This document shows, piece by piece, positions 1 to 46,671 of a DNA stretch of 46,671 bases. Position numbers and translations under genes: made by a program. A model generated the notes under the pieces. That model ran no database searches. It had not been told where the DNA came from and was given only the letters and a program-made list of their open reading frames with translations. Source of the DNA: a phage; the NCBI GenBank assembly GCA_030877765.1, contig GCA_030877765.1_4853.1. One strand, 5' to 3'. Every line of letters starts with the position of its first letter. Position 1 is the first letter of the stretch.

Positions 1-1
1 C

Positions 2-1180
2 AACCTTATCAATGGGGTAGTGGCTAATAATCCTAAATATGCAGCGGTTGTTGCAGGCAAAGGTAGTGCCAACTTAATCTCAGATGTGCTTGTAGATTTC
101 TCAATCTCTGATGCTAGGCAGGCTCACGGTGTTACAGTAGAAGGTTCTGATAACGTCATAAATAATGTGCTTATGTCAGGATGTGATGGTACTAACTCTT
201 TAGGGCAAACTCAGACTGCTACAATTGCGCGCTTTATAGGTACAGCTAATAACAACTATGCGTCTGTATTTCCTAGCTACAGTGCTACAGGTGTTATTAC
301 TTTCGAATCAGGTTCTACCCGTAACTTCGTAGAGGTAAAGCATCCGGGAAGGAGAAACGACCTTCTCAGTACTGATAGTGCTATTAGCGGTGCAGATACT
401 ATTGACGGCACTAATAATAGCAACGTAGTGCACGCCCCTGCATTAGGGCAGTACATAGGCAGTATGTCCGGTAGGTTCGAATGGCGGATTAAGTCCATGT
501 CACTTCCGTCAGGCGTTCTTACCTCGGCTGATAAGTACAGAATGCTTGGGGATGGTGCTGTGTCATTAGCTGTAGGAGGGGGTACTTCTTCTCAAGTTCG
601 CCTATTTACTTCTAATGGTACTTATCGGACAGTATCACTCACCAACGGTAACGTGCGTCTTCCTACCAGTAGCACAGGTTATTTGCAGTTAGGTTCTGAT
701 GCAATGACCCCACATAGTACTAATACATACGCATTAGGTTCCGCAAGTAGAGCATGGTCTGGCGGTTTTACTCAATCAGCATTCACTGTTGTCTCAGATG
801 CTAGGGATAAAACAGAGCCTCTTAATATCTCAGATGCTTTACTGGATGCTTGGTCTGAAGTTGACTTTGTGCAGTTTCAGTACTTGGACCGAATTGAGGA
901 GAAGGGTGCAGACTCAGCTAGATGGCACTTCGGCATCATCGCTCAGCGAGCTAAGGAGGCATTCGAACGTCACGGTATAGATGCACATCGCTATGGCTTC
1001 CTGTGCTTCAACAGTTGGGATGATGTATACGAGGAAGATGCCAATGGCTCTCGTAAACTGATTACACCAGCAGGTTCCCGCTACGGTATTCGTTACGAGG
1101 AAGTACTGATATTAGAGGCTGCGTTGATGCGGCGTACTATTAAGCGTATGCAGGAAGCATTAGCTGTTATGTCTAAGTGA
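2..1180 (+). CDS. Tail fibre/tailspike, 3' portion (5'-truncated at window edge) with C-terminal intramolecular chaperone (peptidase S74-like) domain
   Basis: Reading frame is open from nt 2 with no upstream stop. C-terminal ~130 aa (SDARDKTEPLNISDALLDAWSEVDFVQFQYLDR...HFGIIAQRAKEAFERHGIDAHRYGFLCFNSWDD) matches the autoproteolytic chaperone domain of endosialidase/L-shaped tail fibres. Confidence 0.75.
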   Translation, partial: NLINGVVANNPKYAAVVAGKGSANLISDVLVDFSISDARQAHGVTVEGSDNVINNVLMSGCDGTNSLGQTQTATIARFIGTANNNYASVFPSYSATGVITFESGSTRNFVEVKHPGRRNDLLSTDSAISGADTIDGTNNSNVVHAPALGQYIGSMSGRFEWRIKSMSLPSGVLTSADKYRMLGDGAVSLAVGGGTSSQVRLFTSNGTYRTVSLTNGNVRLPTSSTGYLQLGSDAMTPHSTNTYALGSASRAWSGGFTQSAFTVVSDARDKTEPLNISDALLDAWSEVDFVQFQYLDRIEEKGADSARWHFGIIAQRAKEAFERHGIDAHRYGFLCFNSWDDVYEEDANGSRKLITPAGSRYGIRYEEVLILEAALMRRTIKRMQEALAVMSK

Positions 1181-4471: not shown

Positions 4472-4897
4472 TTAATCTACGTCATCCAGCAAGCCAAAAT
4501 AGAAAAGCGTGGCTTTTTTTAATTCATCAAGCCCATAAGCTATGGCAGCATAATGACCAAGCCTGCACATCTCTGTTAGCACTGCTGATTGATCCTTGCT
4601 CACCCTGCTTTTGCTTTTATCGCGGCGCTTTGCTTCAATCATCCCACAACTGTGATTTACCCCCGGAGTCATTATCACATTGTCGCCTATACCAGCCTTA
4701 ACCCCCATCTTCTGGCGCTTCAGCACAAACTGCACCCTGCTTGATGTGCCAGTTTCGTTGGGTACATGAAACCACAGAACATCAGGGAAGCGGTGTTGCA
4801 TCCATGTTCCATAACCCATCTGGTCAGTCTCCTCTTTTGGGCATTCTCCTCGATAACCGCTATCAAATACCCATATACCGCTATCAAGCTGCTTCAC
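4472..4897 (-). CDS. VRR-NUC domain nuclease
   Basis: FHVPNE ... GMIEAKRR pattern typical of VRR-NUC (PD-(D/E)XK fold). Confidence 0.65.
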   Translation of the reverse strand: MKQLDSGIWVFDSGYRGECPKEETDQMGYGTWMQHRFPDVLWFHVPNETGTSSRVQFVLKRQKMGVKAGIGDNVIMTPGVNHSCGMIEAKRRDKSKSRVSKDQSAVLTEMCRLGHYAAIAYGLDELKKATLFYFGLLDDVD

Positions 4898-12695: not shown

Positions 12696-12849
12696 ACAGA
12701 AAGTCTGGCAACTCGCAAAGCAGCACGAATTAGACGATTTCATCGAGAAGGTTGCAAAGACATTCCCTGACGCGCTTGAAGTCGTTCATGTGCAGACGCG
12801 AAATGAAAATGCATGGTGCTACACAAAAAATCATACAAATGGTAGATGA
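12682..12849 (+). CDS. Hypothetical small protein (55 aa)
   Basis: ATG at 12682 within track ORF 12616-12849. Confidence 0.3.
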   Translation: MQTTKQKVWQLAKQHELDDFIEKVAKTFPDALEVVHVQTRNENAWCYTKNHTNGR

Positions 12850-13276
12850 AATGAAGCTAACAAAAAAACAACGCGAAGAGCTACGCATGAAGTTCGGTGG
12901 TCGCTGTGCTTATTGTGGGTGTGAGCTACCCGAGAAAGGTTGGCATGCAGACCATGTTGAACCAGTGCTACGTAAATCTGAGCAGTGCATGAAGGCAGCG
13001 GCGAAAGGGATTTTCAAGCTGAAGGCAACCGGTGAGCTATATCGACCAGAAGCAGAGCGACTGGAAAACCTTTACCCTGCGTGCGCCCCCTGCAATCTGA
13101 TGAAAACTTCCTATTCCCTGGAAATGTTCAGGAAGCAGGTATCTCTTCAGGTTGCTCGTGGGCGCAAAAGCAGCATGAATTTCCGCACTGCAGAGCGTTT
13201 CGGTCTTATCGCCGTGGTGGAGAAACCAGTTGTTTTCTGGTTTGAGAAATACCAGGAAGAGAACGAAAAAAAATAA
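12839..13276 (+). CDS. HNH endonuclease (terminase-associated type)
   Basis: CAYCGCEL...HADHVEPV...ENLYPACAPCNLMK: Cys4-type HNH motif, positioned just upstream of the terminase genes. Confidence 0.8.
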   Translation: MVDEMKLTKKQREELRMKFGGRCAYCGCELPEKGWHADHVEPVLRKSEQCMKAAAKGIFKLKATGELYRPEAERLENLYPACAPCNLMKTSYSLEMFRKQVSLQVARGRKSSMNFRTAERFGLIAVVEKPVVFWFEKYQEENEKK

Positions 13277-13410
13277 ATGTGTTTATGATGCTCTGTTGGC
13301 AAGCGCGATAATGATGGTGTACAATAAACGCATAACCACCATTGCTTTCACTTATATCATCACCCAACCTTTAAACCGCCTTGTGCGGGTTCTTTTTTAT
13401 CTACGTCTAT

Positions 13411-13450
13411 GTGTTAAAATTAGCGTATGTGTGTTAAAATTAGCGTATGT
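13411..13450. repeat. Perfect 20-bp tandem direct repeat x2
   Basis: GTGTTAAAATTAGCGTATGT at 13411-13430 and again at 13431-13450, between the HNH gene and terS. Confidence 0.9.
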
Positions 13451-13476
13451 GAGTTACTAAAAGAGCACAAAAAGAC

Positions 13477-13917
13477 ATGGCGAATCCAAATCCAAAACAC
13501 AAGTTTTCCTCTACAAATCAACCGCCTCCGCGCGGTAAGAGTTATCGCACAGTGCTGCTTGAGGCGCTTCGTGCTGCAAATACACCGATGAATGAGATTG
13601 AATTCGTCACGTATTACATCAATAGGGCCATGACATGCGAAGACGCTCAGGCAACTGGTATGCTTCGAGAGATATTCCTGCGGCTCAACCCAATTCCTAA
13701 GCCTGTAGCTCCTCCTGTGGAGTTTGACTTCCCTGCTGACGGAACTCCGGTTCAGAAAATGGATGCAATCATCAAGGGTGTCTCCACTGGCGTCGTGCCT
13801 GCTGACATCGGCAAGATGATGGCTGACATTATCAAGTCTGGCCTTGATATTCAGGAAATCACCGAACTCGCAGCGCGACTTGAGCGACTGGAGAAATTGC
13901 TGGAACAGCAACAGTAA
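13477..13917 (+). CDS. Putative terminase small subunit
   Basis: 146-aa protein upstream of the large terminase with helical, coiled-coil C-terminus; assigned by position and size. Confidence 0.5.
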   Translation: MANPNPKHKFSSTNQPPPRGKSYRTVLLEALRAANTPMNEIEFVTYYINRAMTCEDAQATGMLREIFLRLNPIPKPVAPPVEFDFPADGTPVQKMDAIIKGVSTGVVPADIGKMMADIIKSGLDIQEITELAARLERLEKLLEQQQ

Positions 13918-14019
13918 CTGATTTATAATAATTAATGCGGCAAAGGGTAGCTCCCTGCCTGGATTGGTCTCCGGGCTGCCGCATCCATCCAGTGACCGCC
14001 TTTAACCGAGGATTCAATA

Positions 14020-14532
14020 ATGCGACCCTTAAAAGAAGAAAAACTCACGCAAGACAGGCTGAAAGAGTTGCTGCATTATAACCATGATACTGGTATTTTC
14101 ACATGGGTTCAGCGCGCCTCAAAAAGCGTAAGAGTTGGTAATTCAGCTGGCAGTAAGAATAAGTCAGGCTATATAGATATACGCATCGATAAGTCTTTAC
14201 ACAAAGCTCATCGGCTTGCGTGGCTTTACATTTATGGTGTGTGGCCCAATGGGAAAATAGATCACATCAATAACGTGAAGACAGATAACAGAATCTGCAA
14301 CCTGAGAGAAGCAAGCAATAATGAAAACGGATGGAATGCTGGTAAACCATCGACAAATACGTCAGGAGTAAAAGGTGTGAGTTGGGATGCAGAGAAAAAT
14401 AAATGGAAGGCGCATTGCAGGGTTTTTGGGAAAAAATATACAGTAGGTAGGTTTTCATCAAAAGAATATGCTGAGAGAGCCGTGGCGGAGTTCAGAGAGA
14501 AACATCACGGGGAGTTTTTTAATCATGGCTAG
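14020..14532 (+). CDS. HNH-AP2 homing endonuclease (paralog 2 of 4), between terS and terL
   Basis: AHRLAWLYIYGVWPNGKIDHINNVKTDNRICNLR followed by NTSGVKGVSWDAEKNKWKAHCRVFGKKYTVGRF. Confidence 0.85.
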   Translation: MRPLKEEKLTQDRLKELLHYNHDTGIFTWVQRASKSVRVGNSAGSKNKSGYIDIRIDKSLHKAHRLAWLYIYGVWPNGKIDHINNVKTDNRICNLREASNNENGWNAGKPSTNTSGVKGVSWDAEKNKWKAHCRVFGKKYTVGRFSSKEYAERAVAEFREKHHGEFFNHG

Positions 14533-15949
14533 AAAAAGACTCTCAAGTGTGGCAATCGAAAAACTTGAACAGGCGGTTGGAAACTCAACTTCAAAGCCTG
14601 AGTCTGCTGTATTTGGCATTGTTAACAAACTGCTTGCCGATGGTACGCCTAATGTTATAAAGCGCCTAAAAATGACATCAACAGGCGTATCTGAAACAAA
14701 CGAAGAACCAACAATACTCATTCCCGAGAGAATGGAATTACTGCTTTATCCTCGCCGTTTCAAAGTGTTCTATGGAGGTAGGGGCAGCGGAAAGACGGCT
14801 AACGTTGTTTCTTACCTTATAGAAAAGGCAAGATTTCGCAACAGCCGCGTCGGATGCTTTCGTGAGATACAGAACTCAATCAAAGAATCAAGCTATGCCG
14901 AACTGGTTGATGAGATAAACAGGAAAGGACACACTCAGGAATATCGTTGCGTGGATGGTGAAATAACCCACCATTCAACGAGGTCAAAGTTTGTTTTCCG
15001 TGGTTTGTGGCGAAATATAACCGCCATTAAGGGTATGGCTGGCCTTACAGATGTATTCTGTGAAGAATCAGAAAATATCAGCCAGGTTTCATGGGATACG
15101 CTAATCCCAACAGTCCGCGCCGCTGGCTCTGAAATTATTATTGTTTTTAACCCAAACAAAGAGACGGACCCGACATGGACTAACTTTGTTGCGCCTTATA
15201 TTGACAAGATGGTTGACGGCATATATCAGGATGATGACATCGTTGTTGTTAATGTTAATTACATCCACAACCCGTGGTTCACGGAAGAACTTAAGCAGCA
15301 CATGAACCAGATGAAAGCTGTGGATTATGATCGCTACCTTTGGGTGTATGAAGGCTTATTCAACAAGCGGTCTGACGAAGCTGTTCTCGGGGGGAAATGG
15401 CAAACACTCGACTTTGAACCATCTCCTGAGTGGGGTGGGCCTTACTACGGCATTGACTTTGGTTTTTCTCAGGATGCAACAGCAGCAACTGAATCATATG
15501 TAGAAGATTTGGGTGATGGACGAAGAAACCTGTATATCTATCGTGACTTTGCAAAGGTTGGCCTTGAGATAACTGACACGCCGGAAGCGATGCGCTCAGC
15601 ATTCCCAAATTCAGAGAAGTACAGATGGTATGGGGATTGCGCAAGACCTGAAACAATAAGCCATATACGACGCTCTGGATTCGATATTCATCCGTGCGCA
15701 AAATGGCCGGGGAGCATTGAGGACGGTATTACGTGGCTGCGTGGGTGTGACAGGATTTACGTGCACTCAAGATGCAGGCACGTCATTGAAGAGATGACAA
15801 TGTACAGCTATAAGGTGGACAAATTAACAGGTAACATACTCCCTGATATAGTTGATAAATACAATCACGCGATTGATAGTTTACGCTATGGACTTGGAGA
15901 TCACATCGTTCAACGCGGTAGCGGGATGCTAATCCGGCGCAGTCGATAA
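14525..15949 (+). CDS. Terminase large subunit
   Basis: Walker A YGGRGSGKT, ATPase and nuclease domain layout; ATG 14525 overlaps the HNH stop. Confidence 0.9.
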   Translation: MARKRLSSVAIEKLEQAVGNSTSKPESAVFGIVNKLLADGTPNVIKRLKMTSTGVSETNEEPTILIPERMELLLYPRRFKVFYGGRGSGKTANVVSYLIEKARFRNSRVGCFREIQNSIKESSYAELVDEINRKGHTQEYRCVDGEITHHSTRSKFVFRGLWRNITAIKGMAGLTDVFCEESENISQVSWDTLIPTVRAAGSEIIIVFNPNKETDPTWTNFVAPYIDKMVDGIYQDDDIVVVNVNYIHNPWFTEELKQHMNQMKAVDYDRYLWVYEGLFNKRSDEAVLGGKWQTLDFEPSPEWGGPYYGIDFGFSQDATAATESYVEDLGDGRRNLYIYRDFAKVGLEITDTPEAMRSAFPNSEKYRWYGDCARPETISHIRRSGFDIHPCAKWPGSIEDGITWLRGCDRIYVHSRCRHVIEEMTMYSYKVDKLTGNILPDIVDKYNHAIDSLRYGLGDHIVQRGSGMLIRRSR

Positions 15950-20931: not shown

Positions 20932-20977
20932 ACTATGCACCACCAACCAATCTACGTCAACACCATTGTGATAGAAT
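20932..20977. promoter_or_regulatory. Divergent promoter pair
   Basis: Minus strand TTGACG, 17 bp, CATAGT; plus strand extended -10 TGaTAGAAT. The core CACCACCAACCAATCTACGTCAACA recurs at 34160-34190. Confidence 0.55.
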
Positions 20978-34118: not shown

Positions 34119-34159
34119 TTTCATCACCTCTAATATTTATTGTTGTTTCTACGTCACTA

Positions 34160-34205
34160 ACTATAAACGCACCACCAATCTACGTCAACAGGAATATGCT
34201 AAAAT
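34160..34205. promoter_or_regulatory. Divergent promoter pair (duplicate of 20932-20977)
   Basis: Minus strand TTGACG, 17 bp, TATAGT; plus strand extended -10 TGcTAAAAT. Confidence 0.6.
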
Positions 34206-38670: not shown

Positions 38671-39408
38671 ATGAGCAATCGCACGCCACTAACAGAAATC
38701 GGGGAGATGCGCATCTCGCTTTCTGACAGGAGTTTTTTCTTTAAGCCATCATTCCGTGCCATGAATGAAATTGGCACGCCAAAAGAAATCGTCGAGGTAT
38801 ACGCTAAGCTCAATGGCATTGATTATATTGCGCCGTTGCAGCACGTCGAATACCTGCCATTTGGCGCGCAGATGCAGGTTATGAAGACCATCAGCAAACC
38901 TGTGTATGGTCGCCATGTACTGAGCGCAGCCTATATCGTCATGCAATCATGCTGTGAAGATGATATTTCTGTGCTGATTGGTGGATGGAAGCCAACACCG
39001 CGCGGTGTGCGATACGTGCCGGGAGTAATGCCAATTGGCGGCACTGGACATTTGCCAGGTGGAACAGGTGGAATTATTGAGATTGCCCGCTCATTAATGG
39101 AGCACGGCATTATTGGCAAATCACCACTCAAAGTGCCTGAGCGTCTGGAAGAGCAGGGTAAGAAAACCACAAATGAGTTTCATGCGTCGCAATACATCAT
39201 CTCAGCGCGCACGCATTTCGACATGACGCGTGATGAGGCCGAAAACCTGTCCATGACAGAGTTTCAGATGATGATTAAAAATAAATATCCAGAGCCGAAA
39301 GGGTTAACGAAAGAAGAGCGCGCGGCAGAGTACGATCAGGCTAAAGCAGACCGTGAGCGCATGAAGGCACTGGCTGAACGCAAAGCGAAAAAAGCGAGGA
39401 ATACATAA
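38671..39408 (+). CDS. Putative tail assembly chaperone
   Basis: Immediately upstream of the tape measure gene; AGGA RBS; Lys/Glu-rich C-terminus. Confidence 0.5.
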   Translation: MSNRTPLTEIGEMRISLSDRSFFFKPSFRAMNEIGTPKEIVEVYAKLNGIDYIAPLQHVEYLPFGAQMQVMKTISKPVYGRHVLSAAYIVMQSCCEDDISVLIGGWKPTPRGVRYVPGVMPIGGTGHLPGGTGGIIEIARSLMEHGIIGKSPLKVPERLEEQGKKTTNEFHASQYIISARTHFDMTRDEAENLSMTEFQMMIKNKYPEPKGLTKEERAAEYDQAKADRERMKALAERKAKKARNT

Positions 39409-41782
39409 TGGCTGAAGAAGTCGGCGGAATTGTCTATGAAGTCGGGATGGATGTTAAAGGCCTGAAGGCTGGCGCGACAACAGCCAATAAGACTTTAGAT
39501 GACCTTGAATCATCAACCAACAAAACCACAAGCGCCCTTGGCAAGCTGGATAAAAACGCCAGAAATGCTGGCAGCGGAATGAAAAATGCTGGCGGCGCAG
39601 CTTCAGGGCTAAAAACGCAGATGACGGCTCTTGCTGGCGCAATATCCGTGTCACTGATTATCGAATGGGGAAAGCGATTCCTTGATGTTGCCGATAACAT
39701 GACACAACTTCAGGCAAGGATTGCTCGCTTGTCAACTGATGCGAAAACCGCGAACGAAACATTCAGTACACTGGCAAATATCGCCTCGACCACTGGCGCA
39801 AGTCTCAGCGACACCACGAAGCTGTGGGAAACATTGACGTCATCACTGAAAGAGGCTGGCGCGACAAATGCGCAGGTTCTTAACCTTACTGACACTCTGC
39901 AAAAGATAGGACGAATCGGCGGGTCATCAACAGAAGAAATGGCGAACGCCCTGCGTCAGTTCGGTCAGTCAATTGCTTCTGGCACAATCCGCGCCGAAGA
40001 ATTTAACTCCATCCTTGAACAGATGCCTGAACTTGCGCGCCAGATTGCAGCTGGACTTGGCATTTCAATGGGCGAACTTCGCGCCAGAATGCTTGACGGA
40101 AAGCTGACGGCAGAAGATGCACTGAATGCCATTCAGGACAGGACAAGCATCGTCAATGCTGAGTTTGAAAAACTTCCTCGCACAATGGATCAGGCCGTTG
40201 GTTCTCTTGAAGTTTCATTCTCCAAACTTGTGGTTGCCGTTAACGATGCCACTGGCGCATCAAAAACAGTAGTAGAGATTATCGACCAGCTGGCAAAATA
40301 CATTGATTTCCTCGGCGACAAATCAACCAGCACGAGCGACAAGATTCTATCTCTCGCCACGGTTATCTCGAAGCTAAACCCAGGCGCATGGGCACAAATG
40401 GGGGTTGATGCGCTTTTCGGTGATGATGATATTGAGAAGCAAAAACAATATAACGATCAAGTCGAGCGATTCGTTAAGGCTTCAAAAGAAGGTTACGAGC
40501 AGACAAAGAAACAGGCTGAAGCAACAAAACACCTGAAGATTGCACAAGCACCAACCAAAGACAAGAAAGGCAAAGGAAAGGGCAAAAGCGCCGAAGAACG
40601 GCAAGCTGAGTCAGTTGCTGAAAAGCTGGAGAAATTACGCCAGCAAACCATGCTTAATGCCACATCTACCAGCGAACTCTCCCGCGATCAAGCCATCCTC
40701 AACGCGCAGCAATCGCTTGGCAAGGCTGCCACTCAGGAACAAATAAAACTGGCTGGCGAGTACGCTGCGAAGATTTGGGACCAGAGAAACGCGCTGAAGG
40801 AGCAGGCAGCAGCTGAGAAAGAAAAGCAGCGCGTAGAAAAATCATATCAGGGGTTGCGCGCCATTGCGTCACCAACATCTGGCATTGATAGTGAATACCA
40901 GCAACGCATGGCTGACCTTGACGCCTACGCCGCAGCATATCCACAAAAAATCACGGAGATTGAGCAGACTCGCGCAGCAATTGAGGCACAGTACCGCCAG
41001 CAGAGAATGGACGCCATGTGGGCTGAATGGCAGCAGCAAAGCCTCGGGGCGCAATTGTTCGGCACGGCGCTTGATTCAGCGATGAGTACAGCATCAAACA
41101 GCATCACTGGATTGCTCACAGGCACAATGAGCGTTCAGGATGCAATGCGCAGCCTCGGCTCTACGGTGCTGAATTCTCTGGTAAACAGCTTTGTTGAAAT
41201 GGGCGTTCAGTGGGTTAAATCCGCCGTTATGGGGCAGACTGCGCAGGTTGCGGCAACAGCTACCACCACAGCGGCGCAAACGGCAGGACTCGCAACCACA
41301 ACAGCAGCATCAACTGCAGCGGCAGCAACCACTACCGCAGCATGGACTCCAGCGGCAATCGTAGCATCAATCGGTTCATTCGGCGGGGCGGCTGCAATTG
41401 GTGTAGGTGCTGTTCTCGGGGCACTGGCAATGGGTATCGCTGGCAAGCGAAAAAATGGCGGCTCAGTTAGCGCCGGAAGTATGTACGAAGTGGGCGAAAA
41501 TGGCTTGCCTGAAATATTCCAGGCGTCCAACGGTCGCCAGTATATGATTCCCGGCAACGATGGCTCAGTTATCAGCAACAAAGACATTACCGGAAGTGGC
41601 AGTGGCGTTGTGGTTTATAATAACGTGATAAATAACAGCTCTGCTCAGGTTAGCAGCAGTGCCAGAGATAATGGTGATGGCAGTGTGACGATTGAGACTA
41701 TCGTTAGTGATATCGAAAACAACGGCCCTATCGGGCAAAGCATTGGAAGAAACTACTCAGCAAGCCGGAGGGCAACTGAATA

Positions 41783-41783
<1 letters not shown>
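39408..41783 (+). CDS. Tail tape measure protein
   Basis: 791 aa, long Ala/Gln/Glu-rich helical regions, Thr/Ala-rich segment, Gly-rich putative TM segment. Confidence 0.9.
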
Positions 41784-45587
<3,804 letters not shown>

Positions 45588-45626
45588 TACAATATACATC
45601 AAATTCACAAAGGAGCATTTATTATA

Positions 45627-46671
45627 ATGGCTACCACACCAACCAATAAACCAATTCCGTCAGAAGACCCGCGCGACCTGAAGTTTAATGCTGGTAAAAT
45701 TGACGAAGTTGTCAACTCTGACAATCACTACTACACCGATCGCTTTGGTCATCGCCGCTTTACAATTGCAGGATTCCAACACACCGCAGAAGAAGCAATT
45801 CGTAACTATGGCTACATCACAATGGATAGCTTCGAGGATGGCGCGACGCTGACGTTACCGAATCAGGTTTTGCGCTATGAAGCTACTGGAGAATATTACC
45901 GCTGGGATGGTGAATTCCCTAAAACAGTCGCTTCTGGTTCAGCTCCTGCATCCGCTGGCGGTGTTGGAATTGGGAAATGGTTGAGTGTTGGTGATGCAGC
46001 CCTGCGCAGCCAGATTTCAGACCCGGATGGTGCGTCCAGTTACCCTGAATTGCAGATGGCAAGATGGCGTGATGAGGGTGATGTTCGAGGCTGGGGTGCT
46101 AAAGGGGATGGTGTAACGGATAGTACGGAGAATATAGCTGCTTCACTAAATTCTCAAAAAGCTGTCGTAGCATCAGACGGTGTATTCTCTAGTTCTGGTA
46201 TTAATAGTAATTACTGTAACTTAGACGGTAGAGGCAGTGGTGTACTAAGTCACCGTTCAAGTACAGGTAACTACTTAGTATTTAACAATCTACGCTCAGG
46301 TCGCTTAAGTAATATTACGGTAGAAAGTAATAAGGCGACCGATACCACTCAAGGGCAGCAGGTATCTCTTGCTGGTGGTAGTGATGTTACTATAAGTGAT
46401 GTTAATTTCTCAAACGTTAAGGGCATTGGTTTCAGTTTAATCACATACCCTAATAATGCACCCTCTGATGGGCTTATGATTAAAGGCATTCGAGGTAGCT
46501 ACTCCGGCTATGCTACTAATAAGGCGGCTGGATGCATACTTGCTGATTCCTCGGTTAACTCCCTCATAAATAACGTCATTGCTAAGCACTACCCTCAGTT
46601 CGGGGCTGTAGAACTGAAAGGTACAGCCAGTTATAACATAGTCAGCAATGTTATAGGGGCAGACTGCCAGC
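45627..46671 (+). CDS. Tailspike/tail fibre, 5' portion (3'-truncated at window edge) with right-handed beta-helix repeats
   Basis: ATG 45627 with AGGAG RBS; frame open to the window end; Asn/Ser/Gly-rich repeats typical of tailspike beta-helix. Confidence 0.7.
   Translation, partial: MATTPTNKPIPSEDPRDLKFNAGKIDEVVNSDNHYYTDRFGHRRFTIAGFQHTAEEAIRNYGYITMDSFEDGATLTLPNQVLRYEATGEYYRWDGEFPKTVASGSAPASAGGVGIGKWLSVGDAALRSQISDPDGASSYPELQMARWRDEGDVRGWGAKGDGVTDSTENIAASLNSQKAVVASDGVFSSSGINSNYCNLDGRGSGVLSHRSSTGNYLVFNNLRSGRLSNITVESNKATDTTQGQQVSLAGGSDVTISDVNFSNVKGIGFSLITYPNNAPSDGLMIKGIRGSYSGYATNKAAGCILADSSVNSLINNVIAKHYPQFGAVELKGTASYNIVSNVIGADCQ

Follow-up and report, generated by a model that had tools for sequence, protein, structure and literature searches.

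A lineage-private 20-bp tandem duplication ahead of the packaging genes of a Skatevirus-like phage

The packaging locus and its repeat

The window analysed here, a stretch of phage DNA of 46,671 bases, belongs to a Skatevirus-like virulent siphovirus. Across the flanking DNA it shares about 98% identity with Salmonella phage vB_SenS_ST1UNAM and with Escherichia phages vB_Eco_ZCEC08, 6947, HC6, HC8A and Bas77-80, and more distant relatives include swi2, C1, KFS-SE2, DS8 and Skate. The virulent siphoviruses of 46-48 kb in this group are treated as Skatevirus and relatives in the BASEL paper (PMC11990801). At the packaging locus, an HNH endonuclease gene is followed by a 200-bp intergenic region, a 146-aa open reading frame (ORF), a homing endonuclease gene and the gene for the large terminase.

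12788-13276, plus strand: HNH endonuclease gene (Pfam HNH, 1.6e-5; PHROG 2118, 5.9e-59)
13477-13917, plus strand: 146-aa ORF, candidate small terminase by position
14020-14532, plus strand: HNH_3/AP2 homing endonuclease gene (Pfam HNH_3, 1e-13; PHROG 99)
14525-15949, plus strand: large terminase gene, terL (Pfam Terminase_3, 7e-36; Terminase_3C)

The best PDB matches of TerL are Sf6 gp2 (4idh, 2.4e-35) and the nuclease domain of SPP1 G2P (2wbn, 4.5e-8), and by this similarity it is a large terminase of the headful (pac) type. The label terS for the 146-aa ORF is a positional guess: the ORF stands directly upstream of terL in the operon, separated from it just by an insertable homing endonuclease, and no support for a small terminase was found in Pfam, NCBIfam, PDB sequences or fold comparison. 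Its homologue in Skate and KFS-SE2 is 53% identical, with a diverged N-terminal part of about 65 residues and a conserved C-terminal part, and the leader that follows the same terminator in Skate-type phages is entirely different. The candidate TerS therefore comes in two types (13477-13917 here, L027:790-1206 in Skate) that have the C-terminal two-thirds in common and each carry their own leader, which suggests the exchange of a module of leader plus N-terminal domain with one breakpoint at the terminator.

The upstream HNH gene was called terminase-associated in the initial annotation, a description that does not stand, since the gene is missing from four relatives that encode an identical 146-aa protein (L033, L036, L039 and L041) and from most IMG/VR relatives. 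Judged from this distribution, it is an accessory gene and not a partner of the terminase, and it is probably mobile. The HNH_3/AP2 gene is likewise absent at this place in Bas80, L033, L036 and L041. In L036 and L041 (2041-3441), the terL product is 839 aa long and has Hom_end_hint and LAGLIDADG hits, which suggests an intein. The neighbourhood of the packaging genes is a hotspot of selfish elements that are present or absent among close relatives.

The repeat lies in the intergenic region between the HNH gene and the 146-aa ORF, together with the following elements.

13296-13325, plus strand: putative promoter P1, a sigma-70-like match (TTGGCA-18-TACAAT) with 10 of 12 consensus positions
13332-13398, plus strand: predicted short transcript of about 67 nt, C/A-rich and G-poor, closed by an intrinsic terminator (stem at 13373-13391 and T-run at 13393-13398)
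13399-13407, plus strand: box ATCTACGTC, between the T-run of the terminator and the repeat; its general form ATCTACGYC is invariant in nearly all relatives of this leader type
13410-13429, plus strand: copy 1 of the unit, which keeps the ancestral upstream context (box and T-run); TGtTAAAAT at 13412-13420
13430-13449, plus strand: copy 2 of the unit, with the ancestral sequence (leader) kept on its downstream side; extended -10 motif at 13432-13440
13450-13456, plus strand: TGAGTTA, which agrees with the first bases of the unit at 6/7 positions and is found in all single-copy relatives; likely the microhomology used in slippage
13446-13469, plus strand: leader TATGTGAGTTACTMAAAGRRCACA, nearly invariant across clades; Shine-Dalgarno-like AAGAG at 13461-13465

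The unit, TGTGTTAAAATTAGCGTATG, occurs twice head to tail, at 13410-13429 and 13430-13449, and the two copies are 100% identical; the sequence from 13400 to 13460 reads tctacgtcta TGTGTTAAAATTAGCGTATG TGTGTTAAAATTAGCGTATG TGAGTTActa. The initial annotation had recorded the same repeat in a register shifted by one base (GTGTTAAAATTAGCGTATGT, 13411-13430 and 13431-13450) as a perfect 20-bp tandem duplication, and every check of the sequence bears this out. Identity at a period of 20 is perfect over 13410-13451 and extends to 13456 with one mismatch (TGAGTTA versus TGTGTTA). Tandem Repeats Finder (TRF) reports a period of 20 over 13410-13456, with 2.3 copies, 96% matches and a score of 87. When up to three mismatches are allowed, the 20-mer matches the window at 13411 and 13431 only, and none of 100 dinucleotide shuffles matched it. 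A scan of all 46,671 bases for perfect tandem duplications with a period of 12-60 returned this repeat as the sole instance. Its setting had also been described correctly, upstream of the small ORF that precedes terL and after a weak terminator: 26 nt separate the end of the repeat from the ATG (13477) of the 146-aa ORF, and the stem of the intrinsic terminator upstream has a dG of -5.8 kcal/mol.

Elsewhere in the window, an imperfect 33-bp tandem repeat (41292-41357; two copies, 84% matches, in-frame period) lies inside a 791-aa ORF (39408-41783), which is probably the tape measure gene.

Copy number among relatives and origin of the duplication

The unit is present as a single copy in about 40 related genomes and is missing from one. 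Direct alignment with ST1UNAM, ZCEC08, 6947 and Bas80 gives exactly one copy in each, with the rest of the intergenic region almost invariant, and all nine of the GenBank relatives that are about 98% identical match over exactly 20 fewer bases than the query. Each of 22 IMG/VR loci found via the 146-aa protein has one copy of the unit or of its sister-clade variant. Among contigs that encode an identical 146-aa protein (ENA, NCBI and Logan assemblies), nine of ten have one copy and the tenth has none. The 26-nt duplication junction is absent from IMG/VR and from 241 million JGI metagenome records, and no other carrier of the duplication was found in IMG/VR, the JGI metagenomes, the INPHARED phages or the contigs with an identical 146-aa protein. 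Because the relatives have a single copy and the junction is private, the origin of the duplication falls on the terminal branch that ends in this genome. The initial annotation had named two observations that together would speak against a packaging site, namely termini that map elsewhere and a repeat that is absent or single-copy in relatives; the second, comparative one is what the relatives examined here display.

The genome without the unit, L034 (GCA_021146965.1, contig DAFIHJ010000029.1, 1380-1514), is one metagenome-derived assembly, a near-complete contig of 46.4 kb that encodes an identical 146-aa protein. A deletion of 84 bp has taken out the terminator, the box and all of the unit, along with the 3' half of the short RNA before them, and joins ...CCACCATT to TGTGAGTTACTCAAAG..., so that the upstream promoter is fused to the conserved leader, which is kept from TGTGAG onward. 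No second carrier of this deletion junction was found, IMG/VR included.

The single-copy ancestral sequence, as kept in relatives, is ...ATCTACGTCTA[TGTGTTAAAATTAGCGTATG]TGAGTTAC..., with the unit in brackets. In all single-copy relatives it holds a direct repeat of 6/7 bases, TGTGTTA and TGAGTTA, exactly 20 bp apart; once the genome is reconstructed with a single copy, just 0.16% of its positions have identity of at least 6/7 at an offset of 20. Short direct repeats at such spacing are a classic substrate for replication slippage. We propose that a nascent strand ending in ...TATGTG re-annealed one period back, so that the unit was copied twice. Under this mechanism, slipped-strand mispairing at replication would have given rise to a recent, lineage-private tandem duplication rather than to a designed repeat.

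All three features expected of a slippage duplication are found here: the copies are identical and head to tail, the sister genomes have a single copy, and a direct repeat at the period of the duplication flanks the ancestral boundary. Next to known slippage duplications, this one has no unusual feature; its microhomology is imperfect, being exact for TG and then continuing with GTTA past one mismatch. A recent slippage duplication had been the fallback explanation of the initial annotation, and it is strongly supported by the single copy in relatives, the private junction and the microhomology at the right spacing. The duplication is real but ordinary: mutations of this kind are common, and this one is private.

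Two perfectly identical copies could also be an artefact of assembly or sequencing in a genome whose true sequence is single-copy, such as a k-mer overlap that remained untrimmed after the joining or rotation of a circular contig; 20 bp is within the range of small assembler word sizes, and no other genome carries the duplication. However, the window has no terminal overlap, and its ends inside the tailspike gene give it the appearance of an unrotated contig; at 13.4 kb, the duplication is a long way from either end. Its boundaries coincide with the pre-existing 6/7 microhomology at the repeat period, as would be expected of slippage and not of an arbitrary join. The window also has three private substitutions within the same 100 nt, namely C->A at 13375, C->A at 13459 and A->G at 13465 (the last in the Shine-Dalgarno-like stretch), which points to an independently diverging lineage. 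We consider an artefact highly improbable.

The two ends of the window (1-1180 and 45588-46671) lie within the tailspike gene, whose N-terminal part runs off the 3' end and whose C-terminal part enters from the 5' end; this end region matches annotated tail spike genes. Since the two halves are out of frame when the ends are simply joined, the contig must lack a few bases at its ends or have a few too many. The N-terminal part is 89-93% identical to tail spike genes of podoviruses (ZG49, Kayfunavirus), which suggests the exchange of tailspikes between phage families.

The repeat as a packaging site

A cos site at the repeat would be cut by the terminase together with the adjacent HNH protein, in the manner of HK97. 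An HNH gene beside the terminase is the gene order found in HK97-type cos phages, and here the HNH gene lies immediately upstream of the region, giving the same order of HNH, small ORF and terL. However, the TerL of this phage belongs to the headful Sf6/SPP1 type, relatives with an identical downstream protein and the same TerL family do without the HNH gene, the repeat lacks conservation, and nothing points to fixed ends. Analyses of relatives with PhageTerm describe KlebP_265 as having a terminally redundant, fully permuted genome, with no preferred termini (PMC11769527), and STGO-35-1 as using headful packaging of the pac type, with no position given (PMC8954984). These were the only two statements on termini found in the literature on this phage group, and neither comes with positions. 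Because TerL is of the headful type and relatives are reported to be permuted or headful, a cos site is excluded for practical purposes, and we assign it a negligible probability.

A pac site would agree better with a headful TerL of the Sf6/SPP1 type. If the unit were pac or a part of it, the small terminase would recognise the repeated motif ahead of its gene, and headful packaging would begin with a cut close by, as at the pacL boxes of SPP1. The pac sites of P22, Sf6 and SPP1 lie in or beside terS, and the likeness to SPP1 pac (pacL/pacC/pacR) and to the pac sites of P22 and Sf6 consists of a headful phage, a related TerL and a location on the 5' side of the presumed small-terminase gene. 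The leader type, moreover, co-varies with the N-terminal residues (about 65) of the candidate TerS, as expected of a cassette of pac plus recognition domain, although simple linkage explains this equally well.

In SPP1 pac, however, the repeats serve as spaced binding boxes, are conserved and reach into the gene, whereas here we find a private tandem duplication in this genome only, and neither the gene nor its surroundings hold another copy or a related box; a search of 13250-14050 found no repeated boxes or inverted repeats beyond the duplication itself. Among phages with a 146-aa protein that is 95-100% identical, moreover, no part of the leader is less conserved than the unit. In the Klebsiella/Vibrio clade, where the protein is 95% identical and the flanks are nearly identical, the 20 nt from box to leader are the most diverged, with about 35% identity when aligned ungapped. 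Because its sequence diverges while the protein is almost unchanged, the unit is unlikely to be a recognition site. L034, with an unchanged protein, has lost the unit along with box and terminator, which suggests, for one metagenome-derived assembly, that propagation does not require it. In addition, the 146-aa protein is a small-terminase candidate without homology support, and KlebP_265 had no preferred termini. A pac function of the unit is accordingly improbable; the nearly invariant leader or the 5' part of the gene would be better candidates for pac. In neither form is the packaging site proposed by the initial annotation supported.

The control region and its candidate promoter

Every clade with this leader type has a common layout, in which a -10 hexamer is followed by a C/A-rich stretch, the terminator, ATCTACGYC, ATGTGnTAAnAT, about six variable bases and then TATGTGAGTTACTCAAAGRACACA into the start codon. 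The block from 13285 to 13402 is conserved in 176 phage records. The -10 hexamer of P1 is found in all clades as TACAAT, TATAAT or TAAAAT, and the sequence upstream of it varies. In the terminator stem, two pairs are preserved via compensatory changes, and a terminator is annotated at the corresponding place in phage Skate. The dG of -5.8 kcal/mol in the window compares with -10.6 in the nearest relatives and up to -14.4 in others, the weaker terminator being due to the private C->A at 13375 in the stem. A different change, confined to one side of this stem, is present in Bas80, and in L024 the pair is U-A, fully compensated. With permissive thresholds, a search of Rfam with 13100-13700 gave chance-level hits only (all E >= 2).

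The cassette formed by P1, short RNA and terminator (13296-13398) persists where the downstream leader and the protein N-terminus are replaced, as in Skate and KFS-SE2. Candidate identities are a small RNA, the 3' end of the early operon and a terminated leader like lambda 6S. In lambda, pR'-6S RNA-tR' places a constitutive promoter and a short terminated RNA before the late genes. The likeness to it comprises a promoter match, an RNA of about 67 nt and a terminator directly before the packaging genes; unlike lambda, the window has a second promoter-like element behind the terminator, and the two resemble each other in layout only. The annotation of Bas80, a well-annotated relative, includes no Q-like antiterminator. 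The CAUCACC of the short RNA is complementary to GGTGATG, which has 34 hits in the window where 6.3 are expected, mostly in a ribosome-binding or start context.

The 9-mer ATCTACGYC has 28 hits at up to one mismatch in the window, five of them exact, where 11.8 +/- 3.5 are expected. These hits are concentrated in intergenic regulatory gaps, often with divergent promoters, and include sites at 4475, 7092/7117, 11066/11083, 13399, 15973/15996, 20950, 24148/24175, 34147/34178, 37201, 38594 and 46288. On the opposite strand, a longer form of the box, ATCTACGTCAACA, presents a TTGACG -35 hexamer, for example in TTGACG-17-TATAGT at about 34150-34185 on the minus strand, and at other sites a -10 hexamer is fused to the box (TAYAAT-CTACRYC). 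The box may act as a promoter element common to these sites or as an operator for a regulator encoded by the phage. We rejected it as the -35 element of a promoter in the unit, as the spacing is 9 nt here and 15 nt at two other sites.

The sole part of the unit that is conserved across clades is an 11-nt core, ATGTGnTAAnAT, which contains an extended -10 motif (TGnTAnnAT). It reads TGtTAAAAT in the unit and TGgTAAGAT in the sister clade; comparison of ATGTGTTAAAAT with ATGTGGTAAGAT across clades reveals a motif that is kept with a shift of 1 nt between unrelated flanks. In KP591P1, whose protein is 95% identical, the 20 nt between box and leader have diverged save for ATGTGnTAAnAT, itself shifted by 1 nt, and the otherwise unrelated leader of the Skate type has TGtTACAAT behind the same terminator. 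The strict motif TGnTAnAAT has 18 hits in the window, seven of which are non-coding where 1.4 are expected from a non-coding share of 7.9% (p=3e-4). All seven, which include both duplicated copies, face a same-strand gene start within 150 nt. A looser motif, TGTGNTAANAT, was not enriched genome-wide at one mismatch (15 hits versus 14.5 expected). The remaining non-coding occurrences of the strict motif, at 20969, 27043, 31044, 38633 and 43003 (plus strand), are 11-87 nt upstream of same-strand gene starts, and from their placement they are likely promoters of other transcription units.

The motif resembles the extended -10 (TGnTATAAT) of sigma-70 promoters that do without a -35 element. TGn stands directly before TAnnnT, the motif is conserved amid spacers that vary, motifs of its class recur at the starts of other transcription units, and the two copies lie 37-57 nt upstream of the ATG. 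A transcription start about 7 nt downstream of the motif is predicted to fall on the first bases of the invariant leader. No recognisable -35 element was found at the unit, and a simple promoter scan did not call the site. Compared with known extended -10 promoters, the two cores 20 bp apart are peculiar to this genome, and activity here is only predicted. From these sequence comparisons, we consider the odds slightly better than even that the unit is the core promoter of the packaging operon. A search of the literature on this phage group found no transcription start or transcript data.

The 146-aa gene could instead be transcribed by read-through from the upstream promoter P1, and the unit would then merely be part of the 5' leader. 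When folded with one or two copies of the unit, the leader has no significant structure (z-scores 0.2-0.5), and a hairpin that encloses the Shine-Dalgarno sequence in the sister clade (TATGTG/CACATA) is not retained in the clade of the window. Under either reading, the duplication sits in a region that controls transcription or translation.

The duplicated segment lies within the 5' control region of the packaging operon, with the conserved intrinsic terminator on one side and, on the other, the nearly invariant leader and its ribosome-binding site. If the unit is the core promoter, slippage would have doubled this promoter in tandem at a distance of 20 bp; copy 1 would retain the native context on its upstream side, and copy 2 would retain the native start site together with the leader. 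The effect of this arrangement on expression may be neutral. It is also conceivable that the duplication was selected, and that the doubled core promoter, the weakened terminator (C->A at 13375) and the change in the ribosome-binding region (A->G at 13465) together raise expression of the terS/terL operon in this lineage. We find this doubtful: three substitutions per 100 nt are not clearly above the divergence of about 2% in the surrounding DNA, and a coordinated adaptive change of operon expression is therefore possible but unsupported. If it were true, an allelic series of zero, one and two copies would tune late-gene dosage in Skatevirus-like phages.

In a headful phage of this kind, we regard it as probable that the repeat is a recent slippage duplication of the predicted core promoter of the packaging operon, and neither a cos site nor a conserved element of pac. 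A conspicuous perfect repeat beside terminase genes therefore need not mark a packaging signal, and comparison with close relatives decides the matter quickly. The analysis also lays out a conserved control region ahead of the packaging genes in Skatevirus-like phages, and L034, the single-copy relatives and the window together form a natural series of zero, one and two copies that can be used to locate the operon promoter and the pac site.
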